A stretch of 4,999 nucleotides of DNA from a virus (lineage: Duplodnaviria > Heunggongvirae > Uroviricota > Caudoviricetes). A program made the position numbers and the translations under genes. The first letter of the stretch is position 1. Each line of letters starts with the position of its first letter. Shown in pieces: positions 1 to 4,999 of this stretch. The stretch lies in IMG/VR virus record IMGVR_UViG_2695420792_000003; one strand, given 5' to 3'. The notes beneath the pieces were generated by a model. It made no database searches and was not told the DNA's origin. It saw only the letters and a list, made by a program, of their open reading frames with translations.

Positions 1-2
1 AG

Positions 3-155
3 AAAAAGCTTATTATGCTTCCATCGGAAACGATGATCTGGCAGCCTGAGTTCACAGATAAAACACTCTCCAGGAAACCCGGGGCGGTTCAACAGAGCGC
101 GAGCAATCCTCGCCAGAGAAACGGCACATGTAAAATTCCAGCCGTGGCTGGATGA
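3..155 (+). CDS. Possible 3-prime end of an upstream ORF entering the window (unknown product)
   Basis: Frame 3 is open from the window edge to a TGA at 153-155; a terminator-like hairpin follows about 70 nt downstream. No homology recognised; could be non-coding. Confidence 0.2.
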   Translation, partial: KKLIMLPSETMIWQPEFTDKTLSRKPGAVQQSASNPRQRNGTCKIPAVAG

Positions 156-223
156 TAAGTGGAGTCGAGTGTTACCATAATTCCGTCAGAATCTGTTCCA
201 ATAAAGTCACTAGTTAGAAATAC

Positions 224-262
224 TGCCAGCATTCTACGATGACGGAAGTGCTGGCATTTTTT
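224..262 (+). terminator. Candidate rho-independent terminator
   Basis: GC-rich inverted repeat, GCCAGCA at 225-231 pairing with TGCTGGC at 249-255 (extendable to about 10 bp with one G-U pair), loop of about 13 nt, followed by a T-run at 257-262. Confidence 0.45.
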
Positions 263-380
263 GGGTAATATGCGAGTCCATTTCATAAAATACGGGTGCT
301 GTAAACTGGACGATATAATCTAAAATATACCATTACCAGTAGCGTTCAAATCGCTATGTGCCGATACGGATAAAATTATA

Positions 381-409
381 TTGATTGTGCACATACCTTA
401 TTGGATATT
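381..409 (+). promoter_or_regulatory. Candidate sigma70-type promoter for the 439-948 gene
   Basis: TTGATT (381-386), 17-nt spacer, GATATT (404-409) in an AT-rich tract about 30 nt upstream of the start codon. Each hexamer matches consensus only 4 of 6; alternative hexamer pairs exist nearby. Confidence 0.25.
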
Positions 410-438
410 ACTGAGGGGTATTTATATAAGGTGTAACG

Positions 439-948
439 ATGATGTGGAACTTTGACAGTGCCGACTTAAGTGCAATAGCAGCAGGTATTTCTGCGTTTGG
501 CACATTAGCCGCAGCGGGGTCGGCGCTTGCAAGTTGGTACACGTCAAAAAAAGCGCTGCAGCTACAAAATAGAGTTTACCTTTATGAGTCTTTAAAGGCT
601 TGCGCTGAGAGAGCCAATTCATCAGCTAAAGATAAGCGCGGATCTGAATGGAGCGTTAATGATGCAGCGGATATCATCAGGTGCCTAGTACGGGCGATGG
701 AGATCATCAAGCAGGATAGCCAGCAGAAAGAAGGTAATCAGGCATTAATGTTGAAACAGTACTTTGTTAATCTGCTAATAATGGAACTGTACGAGGAAGT
801 TCATAACGGTGATGCGGCTGATTCTGTTTTTAAAAGTACGGAACCTACACAAGTACTTGATAACTTATGGAGCAAATGGCAGGAGGCTATAGCTTTTTTT
901 GATATTTGGAATTACCCAGTTGCGACTGAGGAAGACTTGGCAGACTAA
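439..948 (+). CDS. Hypothetical 169-aa protein with one N-terminal hydrophobic (transmembrane or signal-anchor) segment; unknown function, moron-like accessory gene
   Basis: Intact ATG-to-TAA ORF. SD-like AAGGTG at 428-433, 5 nt upstream of the ATG. Hydrophobic stretch DLSAIAAGISAFGTLAAAGSALASWY, then a charged soluble domain with an acidic C-terminus. Visibly lower GC than the downstream tail genes; upstream terminator and promoter-like elements. No homology recognised from memory. Confidence 0.75.
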   Translation: MMWNFDSADLSAIAAGISAFGTLAAAGSALASWYTSKKALQLQNRVYLYESLKACAERANSSAKDKRGSEWSVNDAADIIRCLVRAMEIIKQDSQQKEGNQALMLKQYFVNLLIMELYEEVHNGDAADSVFKSTEPTQVLDNLWSKWQEAIAFFDIWNYPVATEEDLAD

Positions 949-1044
949 TTTTCAGCACATTTGATTTCCAATAATCAACCAGCCATAATCATGCCATTGG
1001 GGCCTGAACAACTCCGGTGACTTCTGCGCTAAACGGGGACGTTT

Positions 1045-1146
1045 ATGCGCACATACAATCCAACCTCTCTTCTCCATTCACAGATGCAGAAATGCACCTG
1101 CGATATTTTGCATCCAGCGTTTGATCTCTGCGGAGGTGAAGCGTGA
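1045..1146 (+). CDS. Very short ORF (33 codons) whose stop overlaps the start of the NinB-like ORF (GTGA overlap); may be a remnant or leader peptide
   Basis: ATG at 1045 preceded by GGGGA (1035-1039); TGA at 1144-1146 overlaps the GTG at 1143-1145. Too short to judge coding potential; contains an inverted repeat. Confidence 0.15.
1084..1113 (+). repeat. Imperfect inverted repeat (ATGCAGAAAT ... ATATTTTGCAT) upstream of the NinB-like start
   Basis: Arms at 1084-1093 and 1103-1113 are near reverse complements, separated by GCACCTGCG. AT-rich stem, so unlikely to be a terminator; possible protein-binding site or RNA structure. Confidence 0.2.
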
Positions 1147-1397
1147 ACCTCCCACAAGATGGTATCAAATTGCATCGCGGTAACTTCACCGCTATCGGTC
1201 GGCAGATCCAGCCTTATCTGGAGGACGGCAAATGCTTTCGCATGGTGCTTAAACCGTGGCGCGAGAGACGCAGTCTTTCCCAGAATGCACTCAGCCACAT
1301 GTGGTACAGCGAAATCAGTGAATACCTCATCAGCAAGGGTAAAACGTTCGCCACTCCAGCTTGGGTATCCGCACCGGCGGGCGCGTGCTGGCGGTAA
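1143..1397 (+). pseudogene. NinB-like N-terminal fragment (lambdoid nin-region recombination protein family), truncated by fusion to J-derived DNA
   Basis: GTG start with GGAGG (1132-1136) 6 nt upstream. Translation contains RERRSLSQNALSHMWYSEISEYL, resembling the lambda/P22 NinB motif RNRSLDQNRKLWACLGDVSRQV at the same distance from the N-terminus. The frame ends at 1397 after reading into J-derived sequence; only about 65 residues look NinB-like. Confidence 0.5.
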
Positions 1398-2329
1398 ACA
1401 GCCAGACCCGGACGCTGACGCTCGACCGTGAAATCACGCTGCCATCTTCCGGCACCACGCTGATAAGCCTGGTTGACGGGCAGGGGAGTCCGGTCAGCGT
1501 GGAGGTTCAGTCCGTCACCGACGGCGTGAAGGTGAAAGTGAGCCGTGTTCCTGACGGCGTTGCTGAATACAGCGTATGGGGGCTGAAGCTGCCGACGTTG
1601 CGCCAGCGCCTGTTCCGCTGCGTGAGTATCCGTGAGAACGACGACGGCACGTATGCCATCACCGCCGTGCAGCATGTACCGGAAAAAGAGGCCATCGTGG
1701 ATATTGAGAACACCCCTGACGGCATGCAGAGTCAGGTGCTGCTGGCGGCGGACAGGATTGCGATGGTTAATCCTGCGAATGGCAACACAAAACCGATGTT
1801 TGTTGGTCAGGGCGATCAGATATTCATGAACGACGTGTTCCTGAAACGCCTGACGGCCCCCACCATTACCAGCGGTGGAAATCCACCGGCATTTTCCCTG
1901 ACACCGGACGGAAAGCTGACCGCTAAAAATGCGGATATCAGTGGCAGTGTGAATGCGAACGCCGGGACGCTCAACAATGTCACGGTAAATGAAAACTGTA
2001 CGATTAAGGGCATGCTGGAGGCGACTCAGGTCAGAGGTGACTTCGTTAAAGCTGTATCCAAATCATTCCCGAAACAGGCTGGTACGTGGGGTAATACGGA
2101 AACACCAAACGGGACGGTTACAGTCACCATCAGCGATGATCATAACTTTGACCGTCAAATCATTATTCCGCCCATTATCTTTAACGGAATAGCGTATAGC
2201 GATCCGGGAAGTGGTAATAACCGATGCTGCAGGCTCAGCACGTGCCGCCAGCACGTCAGCCGGACAGGCCGCGTCGTCGGCTCAGTCAGCGTCTTCCAGC
2301 GCAGGAACGGCATCGACAAAGGCCCGTGA
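1361..2329 (+). pseudogene. J: Fragment of the lambda J-type central tail fibre / host specificity protein, internally deleted and missing both its N-terminal part and its C-terminal receptor-binding end
   Basis: Frame 2 (open from 1343) encodes [95 protein letters not shown] and later [63 protein letters not shown], matching lambda J as I recall it. There is no ATG (the track start is a TTG). The last 36 codons before the stop at 2327-2329 are stf DNA read out of frame. Confidence 0.85.
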
Positions 2330-4999
2330 AGCAGCAAAAAGTGCTGCTGCAGAGTCCTCAAAAAGCGCGGCAGCTACCAGTGCCGGTGCGGCGAAAACGT
2401 CAGAAACGAATGCGGCAGCGTCACAACAATCAGCAGCCACTTCTGCATCCGCCGCGACCACGAAGGCGTCAGAAGCAGCCACCTCAGCCCGGGATGCGGC
2501 GGCCTCAAAAGAGGCAGCGAAATCATCAGAAACGAACGCATCATCAAGCGCCAGTAGTGCCGCTTCCTCGGCAACGGCGGCAGGCAATTCCGCGAAGGCG
2601 GCAAAGACGTCTGAGACAAACGCCAGGTCTTCTGAAACGGCAGCGGGACAGAGCGCCTCGGCTGCGGCAGGCTCAAAAACAGCGGCTGCGTCGTCTGCCA
2701 GTGCCGCGTCAACAAGTGCCGGGCAGGCCTCAGCCAGTGCCACCGCCGCCGGAAAATCGGCAGAAAGCGCCGCATCGTCTGCTTCAACAGCCACAACGAA
2801 GGCTGGCGAAGCCGCTGAACAGGCCAGCGCAGCAGCGAGGTCTGCATCCGCAGCGAAGACATCCGAAACGAACGCGAAAGCCTCGGAAACCAGTGCAGAA
2901 TCCTCAAAAATGGCAGCTGCATCGTCCGCCAGTTCGGCGGCGTCATCGGCATCATCTGCGTCTGCTTCAAAAGATGAGGCGAGCAGACAGGCATCAGCAG
3001 CGAAAGGCAGCGCCACGACAGCATCCACGAAGGCGACAGAGGCAGCTGGCAGTGCGACGGCGGCATCTCAGAGCAAAACTACTGCTGAATCCGCTGCGAC
3101 CCGTGCGGAAGCTGCTGCTGATCGTGCTGAAGAGATTGCCGGTGCAGTTGCGATGGAAGACGCAAGCCTTACAACTAAAGGTGTTGTGAAACTTAGCAGT
3201 GCTGTTGATAGCACCAGTGAATCGCTGGCCGCAACGCCAAAAGCAGTTAAAGCAGCCAATGACAATGCGAATAGCAGGGTGCCATCTAACCGAAAAGTTA
3301 ACGGAAAAGCACTGACTGCGGATATAACATTAACGCCGAAAGATATTGGTACTTTAAATTCAGTAACGATGTCTTTCTCTGGCGGGGCTGGGTGGTTCAA
3401 ACTGGCTACGGTTACCATGCCACAAGCGAGTTCCATCGTTTACATCGCATTGATTGGTGGCGCTGGTTACAACGTCGGTTCCCCACATCAGGCAGGCATT
3501 TCAGAACTGGTTCTACGAGCAGGCAATGGAAACCCCAAAGGAATTACCGGGGCTTTGTGGAAGCGTACAGCCGTCGGATTAACGAATTTCGCCTGGATCA
3601 ACACATCCGGCGATACATATGATATTTACGTTGAGATTGGCAATTATGCGACGAGTGTAAATATCCATTGGGATTGTACTGCAAATGCGTCAGTTTCTGT
3701 TTATACCTCGCCAACATATTCAGCGAGTAAGCCTTCCAGCGTTACCTATGGTGTTGTTTATACGATGTATAGCTCACATCAGAAACCTACACCATCAGAT
3801 ATTGGAGCACTGCCAACAACCGGAGGAACAGTTTCAGGTCCGTTGTCTGTTACAGGTGGATTAACTGGTTCATTGAATGGTAATGCAAGTACAGCCACGA
3901 AATTGCAGACGGCAAGATCTATCGGTGGAGTTGTTTTCGACGGTTCTGCAAATATTAACCTTCCAGGTGTAAACACTACGGGTAATCAGAACACCACTGG
4001 TAATGCTGCAACTGCTACAAAACTCCAGACTGCAAGAAAAATATCCGGTGTTCCATTTGATGGTTCCAAAGATATTACTTTAACCGCCGCGCATGTGGCT
4101 GCTTTTGCCAGAAGGGCAACGGATACATATGCCGATGCGGATGGTGGCGTTCCCTGGAATGCCGAATCAGGCGCTTACAATGTCACCCGCTCTGGCGACA
4201 GCTATATTCTGGTTAACTTCTATACCGGAGTCGGAAGTTGCCGGACCCTGCAGATGAAGGCGCATTACAGAAATGGTGGTCTGTTCTACCGTTCTTCAAG
4301 AGACGGTTATGGTTTTGAGGAAGGCTGGGCAGAAGTTTATACCTCGAAAAATCTTCCACCAGAAAGCTACCCAGTCGGCGCACCAATCCCGTGGCCATCA
4401 GATACCGTTCCGTCTGGTTATGCCCTGATGCAGGGGCAGACTTTTGACAAATCTGCTTACCCGAAACTTGCAGCCGCTTATCCGTCAGGCGTGATCCCTG
4501 ATATGCGTGGCTGGACGATTAAGGGCAAACCTGCCAGTGGTCGGGCCGTATTGTCTCAGGAACAGGACGGCATTAAATCGCACACCCACAGCGCCAGCGC
4601 ATCCAGTACGGATTTGGGGACGAAAACCACATCGTCGTTTGATTACGGAACCAAATCCACGAATAACACCGGGGCGCATACCCATAGTATTAGCGGGACC
4701 GCAAATAGTGCCGGTGCGCACCAACACAAGAGTTCCGGTGCATTTGGTGGCACGAACACGAGCATTTTCCCTAATGGTTATACCGCGATTTCAAATCTAA
4801 GCGCGGGGATTATGAGCACAACAAGCGGTAGTGGCCAGACTCGTAATGCAGGGAAGACATCATCAGATGGTGCTCATACCCACTCGCTGTCCGGCACTGC
4901 TGCAAGCGCAGGCGCACATGCACATACTGTCGGTATTGGTGCTCATACGCACTCCGTTGCGATTGGCTCACATGGACACACCATCACCGTTAACGCTGC
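2193..4999 (+). CDS. stf: Side tail fibre protein, Stf / StfR-like (lambda Stf family with T4 gp37-like C-terminal tip); 5-prime end replaced by the J fragment, 3-prime end runs past the window
   Basis: Frame 3 is open from the TAG at 2190-2192 to the window end. Translation [18 protein letters not shown]...AAKTSETNA...TATKLQTAR...[72 protein letters not shown]...[11 protein letters not shown] matches lambda Stf and E. coli StfR as I recall them. The only start-like codons in frame are a GTG at 2211 without a good SD and an ATG at 2910; the normal Stf N-terminus is absent. By my recall of the lambda Stf C-terminus, about 20 codons remain beyond the window. Confidence 0.9.
2230..3130 (+). repeat. 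Ala/Ser/Thr-rich low-complexity shaft repeat zone of the tail fibre (recurring AAK(T/S)SETNA units)
   Basis: Four copies of the AAK[TS]SETNA unit, at about 2389, 2514, 2599 and 2851, within GCN-rich sequence. The zone is free of stop codons in several frames on both strands. Confidence 0.7.
3885..4082 (+). repeat. Two tandem copies of a roughly 40-residue phage tail fibre repeat
   Basis: [26 protein letters not shown] (about 3885-3962) and [26 protein letters not shown] (about 4005-4082), period 120 nt. Conserved at the protein level but diverged at the DNA level. Confidence 0.7.
4581..4979 (+). other. C-terminal tip region with seven His-x-His motifs (gp37-like putative metal-binding receptor-binding needle)
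   Basis: In frame: SHTHS, AHTHS, AHQHK, AHTHS, AHAHT, AHTHS, SHGHT, between codons at 4581 and 4979. Confidence 0.7.

Follow-up and report, generated by a model that had tools for sequence, protein, structure and literature searches.

The join between ninB-type and J sequence at positions 1363-1367 of the 4,999-nt stretch of phage DNA analysed here (the window) is interpreted, with a probability of about 0.9, as the scar of one internal deletion of ~24 kb in a lambdoid prophage at the icd site, by which codon 75 of ybcN was brought up against codon 488 of the tail gene J. The breakpoints, the microhomology, the gene content, the genomic site and the distribution of the element were observed directly; the scar itself is what suggests the mechanism, RecA-independent slippage or illegitimate recombination. 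The features of the window are listed below, with J codons numbered on the 1165-codon J gene of strain 22AR0750 (CDS 1541-5038 of locus L002).

1-91, no strand assigned: terminal ~91 nt of an IS3-family insertion sequence, ending ...CCCGGGGCGGTTCA
89-180, + strand: 3′ end of a P22AR C-terminal domain (Rha/antirepressor-like) gene, DLP12-like early-right region
439-948, + strand: intact 169-aa phage ORF, PHROG 1779 (unknown function), E=1e-102 over its full length
1045-1146, + strand: 33-aa ORF, located directly upstream of ybcN in the annotations of E2, K-12 and B7A (DLP12-type prophages)
1143-1367, + strand: NinB′/YbcN′, codons 1-75 of 151, identified by DNA identity to ybcN and by PHROG 72
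1363-1367: junction A, the ninB/J join
1364-1702, + strand: J′ fragment 1, codons 488-600 of J, frame 2, without a native start
1702/1703: junction B, an in-frame deletion of 933 bp (311 codons) in J, with a microhomology of 2 nt (TA)
1703-2222, + strand: J′ fragment 2, codons 912-1084, comprising part of the Phage_Tail_Tip domain and the initial third of the receptor-binding domain
2222/2223: junction C, a deletion of 1,417 bp that shifts the frame
2223-4999, + strand: stf′ (side tail fibre) from codon 147 onward, frame 3, leaving the window at its right end

Junction A was placed to the base by local BLAST against intact relatives and by three-way alignments in which four alleles each of ybcN and J were used. 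To its left, DNA of the NinB-family gene ybcN continues with 92-97% identity up to position 1367; to its right, J homology with identity of up to 99.7% begins at 1364, and with some J alleles one base earlier, at 1363. The BLAST E-values, 1e-135 to 1e-175, are far beyond chance. The two homologies overlap by 4-5 nt, GGTA (1364-1367) or GGGTA (1363-1367), with zero filler. In the three-way alignments, with a slash at the breakpoint, ybcN alleles have the sequence ...CCAGCTTGGGTA/AAAGATG..., J alleles have either ...TATGCC/GGTATCCGCACC... or ...TATGCG/GGTATCAGC..., and the window has ...CCAGCTTGGGTATCCGCACC... across the junction. Each of the three close ybcN alleles, like each of the four J alleles, contains GGTA/GGGTA, of which the junction kept one copy; the divergent ybcN allele L014 has GGGTG at the repeat position. 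The chance of a microhomology of at least 4 nt at a random blunt join is 0.016, and of at least 5 nt 0.005, the overlap of 4-5 nt presupposing parental alleles as deduced from the relatives. G+C content changes from 0.50 (1051-1350) to 0.64 (1351-1650) across the junction.

The first-pass annotation had placed a join between a nin-region gene and J within 1330-1400, and the join proved to be real. The changeover is direct, as had been proposed, but it is abrupt and overlapping rather than spread over ~60 nt. The reading frames had been given correctly: NinB′, whose GTG is at 1143, is in frame 3, and J′ is in frame 2, open from 1343 after TAA 1340-1342, so that the fragments do not share a frame. 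The microhomology that the annotation had suggested looking for was found in GGTA/GGGTA. It had also allowed that ORF 1143-1397 might be something other than a nin-region gene and that J homology might begin far from the join; neither is the case, the ORF being identified by its PHROG 72 match and its DNA identity to ybcN, and J homology being adjacent in both BLAST and the three-way alignments.

A deletion mediated by an adjacent insertion sequence would leave that element at the junction, and at 1363-1367 there is no IS sequence, IS remnant, inverted repeat or target duplication, only two homologies that abut with their 4-5 nt overlap. Such an origin is extremely improbable, IS3-family and IS2 copies active in and around the element being what could be cited for it.

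ORF 1143-1397 (84 aa, frame 3, GTG start at 1143, stop at 1395-1397) begins with 75 residues of NinB′ that finish ...TFATPAWV and continues with nine out-of-frame J codons (SAPAGACWR). The 75 residues match PHROG 72, 'NinB/Orf homologous recombination mediator', with E=2e-21, and thereby satisfy the family profile, but the match covers positions 7-82 of 161 only and full-length NinB/Orf proteins have about 146-151 aa; NinB′ is a gene fragment and no functional member of the family. Pfam finds nothing in the 84-aa ORF at its default threshold (NinB 12.4 bits versus a cut-off of 23.8), because the ORF is truncated and the Pfam NinB model is weak; full-length YbcN also scores under the cut-off, at 21.6 bits. 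The position of the fragment is that of a nin-region gene, since the order in strain E2 is ′O, P, ren, emrE, ybcK, P22AR, two hypothetical genes and NinB′, as in DLP12 and B7A. PGAP describes window 1143-1367 as 'NinB/YbcN family protein, incomplete, missing C-terminus'.

On the other side of junction A, window 1363-1703 aligns with positions 3001-3341 of the 22AR0750 locus, and J′ fragment 1 is 99.7% identical to J of DDG206. At junction B, window 1703 corresponds to position 3341 and window 1702 to position 4273 of the same locus; the same 933 bp are absent relative to locus L005, and J codons 601-911, both Ig-like domains among them, are taken away. At junction C, where window 2222 corresponds to position 4793 and window 2223 to position 6211, codons 1085-1165 of J, the lom gene and the first 438 nt of stf were lost, so that J codon 1084 is joined to stf codon 147; no perfect microhomology at this junction appeared in alignments with relatives. 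ORF 1361-2329 (322 aa, frame 2) runs past junction C for 107 nt out of frame in stf to a stop at 2327-2329, and its start is a TTG at 1361 alone, with no obvious ribosome-binding site. In intact J all six domains (FNIII-A, Phage-tail_3, two Ig-like domains, Phage_Tail_Tip and the C-terminal receptor-binding domain) were detected. The translation of 1364-2221 matches Pfam Phage_Tail_Tip (E=7e-18, profile positions 41-138) and Ig_GpJ_C (E=1.5e-11, positions 1-47 of 135), and J′ lacks the full series, with codons 1-487, 601-911 and 1085-1165 gone. PGAP names window 1364-2221 'phage tail tip domain-containing protein, missing N-terminus and C-terminus'.

NinB′ and J′ thus belong to the NinB and J families by descent and are not full-length members of either. 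That the NinB(1-75) peptide or the 322-aa J′ ORF has been kept for a function, in recombination control or superinfection exclusion, is highly improbable. Both reading frames are still open, junction B is in frame, and the junctions persist in a lineage whose flanks are ~1.25% different (Z1323CEC0014), as might be expected of functional fragments; however, NinB′ is without half of the protein, and J′ has lost residues 1-487, the two Ig domains and the greater part of the receptor-binding domain, and has only the TTG at 1361 with no obvious ribosome-binding site. Further loss elsewhere, of window 1372-1632 in Z1323HEC0011 and of the whole region in 98-3133, argues against selection. The pieces of the scar are already annotated as 'incomplete; partial' pseudogenes in RefSeq/PGAP. 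ORFs 1143-1397 and 1361-2329 are pseudogene fragments and should not be called as genes.

The extent of the deletion was measured on PhiR26_1 (PV340555.1), an intact DLP12-like lambdoid phage that shares with the window region the order and orientation of P22AR/Rha, the 169-aa ORF, ybcN, J, lom, stf and tfa, with 96.7% identity in the left arm and 89-92% on the J/stf side. PhiR26_1 differs in being complete, at 48.2 kb, and in that its breakpoint positions are separated by 23.7 kb, occupied by nin, Q, lysis, head and tail genes. Window 1367 corresponds to its base 13,777 and window 1364 to its base 37,499, and the breakpoints are 23,725 bp apart. Relative to PhiR26_1, the missing genes are, in order, the 3′ half of ybcN, ybcO, rusA, ylcG, Q, a porin moron, S/R/Rz and bor; then Nu1/A, W, B, C/Nu3, D, E, FI, FII, Z, U, V, G and T; and finally H, M, L, K, I and the first 1,460 nt of J. 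The loss of the whole late region, put at tens of kb in the first-pass annotation, is borne out by this distance, and the collinearity of PhiR26_1, the 4-5 nt repeat and the lack of filler support the reading of the join as the scar of a large deletion or of illegitimate recombination.

The ybcN and J endpoints are collinear both in PhiR26_1 and in a partly intact prophage of strain FREC5 at icd, neither of which is the exact progenitor. The closest relatives of the left arm are B7A and PhiR26_1 (96-97.6% identity), and those of J are DDG206 (99.7%) and 22AR0750 (96.5-98.8%), which are prophages other than the left-arm relatives. An exact undeleted progenitor was not found in the collection, in which three loci with McrBC-like cargo at the right end were inspected: 98-3133 is a smaller remnant, 504239 a differently rearranged remnant and FREC5 a more complete prophage. 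At icd, FREC5 has a normal M-L-K-I-J-lom-stf tail module upstream of the same McrBC-like cargo, with 83-94% identity. Full lambdoid prophages of the FREC5 type do occupy the icd site; as the direct progenitor, FREC5 was rejected on account of this identity to the remnant.

The different prophages, at different chromosomal sites, in which the best relatives of the left and right sides are found, and the high mosaicism of lambdoid phages, would also fit illegitimate recombination between two phage genomes, such as a DLP12-like icd remnant and an infecting or co-resident lambdoid phage, with no intramolecular deletion. This origin is judged unlikely. Mosaic best matches are expected for any lambdoid phage however the scar arose, intact phages have both modules collinear, and the flanks of the element are collinear as well, with int next to icd and the icd′ pseudogene at the opposite end, indicating no rearrangement between prophage sites. 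The collinear flanks and the collinear intact phages make a join between two phages less likely than a simple deletion.

In the favoured course of events, a lambdoid prophage would have integrated at the icd attachment site of E. coli, and a RecA-independent microhomology deletion, by illegitimate recombination or replication slippage at the GGTA/GGGTA direct repeat, would have taken out the remainder of ninB, together with ninE, ybcO, rusA, Q, the lysis cassette, the terminase and head genes and the tail genes as far as mid-J. The leftovers would have been dead, NinB′ being half a protein with a nonsense tail of nine residues and J′ having neither its own start nor a ribosome-binding site. 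J′ would have been hit again by the deletions at 1702/1703 and 2222/2223, either before or after junction A was formed. Together with a further deletion between the exonuclease gene and O, these events would have produced a grounded remnant, passed on with the chromosome. Illegitimate deletion at microhomologies is a standard route of prophage erosion.

The window region belongs to a grounded prophage at icd, where phage 21 and e14 are documented to integrate (PMC12803456). A remnant of ~17.6 kb was found there in all five carrier loci inspected, namely those of E2, NCTC9100, Z217-2 and Z1323CEC0014, which are among the 17 genomes with junction A, and that of the further-decayed Z1323HEC0011. 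In E2 the element is bordered by icd and iraM, and the DNA on either side is collinear with that of a normal chromosome. Its gene order begins with integrase, excisionase, DUF4222, TraR/DksA, a DGQHR protein, DUF1317, exonuclease, ′O (a pseudogene), P and Ren, continues with EmrE, a YlcJ-like ORF, a YbcK-type recombinase, the P22AR-C protein, the 169-aa ORF and a small ORF, and ends with NinB′ and ′J′ (pseudogenes), Stf′, Tfa, an AAA-ATPase/McrC pair and an icd′ pseudogene. This layout and site are repeated in NCTC9100, Z217-2, Z1323CEC0014 and Z1323HEC0011. In all five loci int and xis adjoin icd and the icd′ pseudogene is at the opposite end; the window stops short of both.

Of at least four deletion scars carried by the element, three are within the window. 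The scar outside it, at 16265-16266 of the E2 locus (L001), connects the exonuclease gene with the 3′-terminal 237 nt of O, with the equivalent of ~4.9 kb missing (bet, gam, kil, cI, cro, cII and the 5′ part of O). The element is accordingly without a repressor or cro, intact O, Q, lysis, terminase, head and tail-shaft genes; Q, the lysis, terminase and head genes and every tail gene upstream of J are absent from all five carrier loci. The earlier description of this DNA as a defective prophage remnant holds, since no immunity region, intact O, late regulator, lysis genes or virion genes are left. A Rac-like origin was rejected: the left arm is DLP12-like and the integration site is icd. Since annotations show int and xis to be intact in most carriers, the remnant may still be able to excise. 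Two groups of cargo genes accompany the phage genes: emrE, which encodes a multidrug SMR transporter, and the ybcK-type serine recombinase gene are located at 17567-19681 of the E2 locus, arranged as in DLP12 of K-12, and the AAA-ATPase/McrC (McrBC-like) pair, at 25917-28990, adjoins the icd′ end.

The comparison with known elements shows how ordinary the remnant is. DLP12 of E. coli K-12 has the same left-arm gene order, ren-emrE-ylcJ-ybcK-...-ybcN-ninE-ybcO-rusA-quuD, with 92.6% DNA identity over the ybcN region (window 960-1367), and both are defective lambdoid prophages in which cargo such as emrE was kept. DLP12 differs in being at argU instead of icd and in having a complete ybcN as well as the remaining nin-region genes, Q and the lysis genes; in the icd remnant, by contrast, ybcN breaks off after codon 75, where J sequence takes over. 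With e14 and phage 21 the remnant shares the integration site, int next to icd and a duplicated 3′ fragment of icd (icd′) at the far end. It resembles e14 also as a decayed lambdoid remnant that ends in tail-fibre genes and a restriction-type cargo gene by attR; in contrast to the pin/mcrA region of e14, it has a DLP12-like early-right region, J and stf fragments and the McrBC-like pair. A direct repeat of a few nucleotides, one copy kept, no filler and nested deletions are what is seen in short-homology chromosomal deletions and in prophage domestication, and nothing about the present case is distinctive. The ninB/J scar is ordinary cryptic-prophage decay, which is known biology, and has little importance beyond annotation.

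When window 1000-1700 was used as a megablast query against 5,426 complete E. coli genomes, left-only or right-only matches were found in thousands of genomes, and matches spanning junction A in 17 only. The left part (query 3-368, window 1002-1367) is annotated as 'ybcN: DNA base-flipping protein YbcN' together with the small upstream ORF, and the right part (query 364/365-701, window 1363/1364-1700) as 'gpJ: phage attachment tail tip protein J'. The three junctions, A, B and C, are always found together, in this one set of 17 genomes. The set includes E2, ML35, NCTC9100, TUM3755, RM10410, Z217-2/-4, TB4019/TB4328 and a series of Korean chicken isolates, and its members match window 89-4999 at 97.5-100% identity. 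Exact-match scans with the 34-nt sequence of junction A gave two metagenome contigs, and zero matches in GTDB contigs with one genome per species. Because the junction recurs independently, an assembly artefact is excluded: a chimera of assembly or sequencing, conceivable a priori as for any unexpected junction, has a negligible probability when the identical junction is found in 17 independently assembled genomes from several countries and hosts and in the two metagenome contigs.

No intermediate with junction B or C and without junction A was found among the 5,426 complete genomes. Z1323CEC0014 has the same junctions with 2.5% divergence in the window region and ~1.25% divergence in its chromosomal flanks over 24.9 kb, from which it follows that the scars are not recent in that comparison. 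Therefore, either the scars are older than the split of the Z1323CEC0014 lineage or they were transferred with flanking DNA by homologous recombination.

Decay has continued in several strains. Z1323HEC0011 (L006 11995-12007) has lost an extra 261 bp between 7-nt GTATCCG repeats at window 1365-1371 and 1626-1632; the first of these copies straddles junction A and was created by it, so that one scar seeded the next deletion. The same strain is also without ~2.7 kb, from about window 2220 to about 4933, and Z217-2 is without ~519 bp of stf, roughly window 3985-4501. In the O157:H16 strain 98-3133 the exo/O scar was kept, P′ is joined to the last 129 nt of stf, and the whole window region is gone. 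The nested deletions across strains make a small, clean example of stepwise prophage decay by short-repeat deletions around kept cargo, a process that is already well described.

The McrBC-like cargo was found beside attR at icd in 289 complete genomes (at least 80% coverage), attached to remnants at very different stages of decay (L013-L015), and it may be the selected cargo that holds the remnant in place. An extended reading is considered improbable: the icd remnant would represent a single stage of a nested series of decay, spread over hundreds of E. coli genomes and held by selection for cargo, and the scar would have survived lineage divergence only through its position between selected genes. 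The selected genes would be the McrBC-like restriction pair, emrE and possibly a truncated Stf-Tfa module translated from GTG 2211. If this were true, the truncated tail-fibre module would be functionally retained, for instance as a recombination reservoir for incoming phages.

At the left end of the window, bases 1-95 have 24,778 matches, spread over 4,073 genomes, at places annotated 'IS3 family transposase'. Placed side by side with the uninterrupted sequence of E2, the IS3-family end is seen to interrupt the P22AR C-terminal-domain gene, which PGAP annotates at 19793-20092 of the E2 locus (window -119 to 180) and which is also present in the DLP12-like prophage of B7A. All 17 copies of the remnant in complete genomes match the window from base 89 onward only, and the insertion at window 1-91 is in none of these 17 copies nor in either of the two metagenome contigs. 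The IS3-family end is separate from the junction A scar.

The intact 169-aa ORF (439-948) is annotated as WP_000990013.1 and is also found in PhiR26_1, at 12849-13358. It has no Pfam match and no PADLOC match. It has a hydrophobic N-terminal segment and a G+C content of 0.38-0.47, and is kept upstream of ybcN in DLP12-like phages.

At the right end, stf′ is 99.2% identical to stf of 22AR0750, with matches to Pfam Collar and Phage_fiber repeats. Its frame 3 is open after a stop at 2190-2192, with candidate starts at GTG 2211 and ATG 2910; PGAP sets the start at ATG 2910 in E2, and upstream, near junction C, in Z217-2 and Z1323CEC0014. Over the Ala/Ser-rich repeats of stf, where AT skew is 0.3-0.4, an antisense ORF of 248 aa occupies window 2282-3028 on the - strand and is called 'hypothetical protein' in some RefSeq genomes, for example WP_021570482.1. 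This ORF is most likely an annotation artefact, called where the start of stf was set at ATG 2910 and not upstream.
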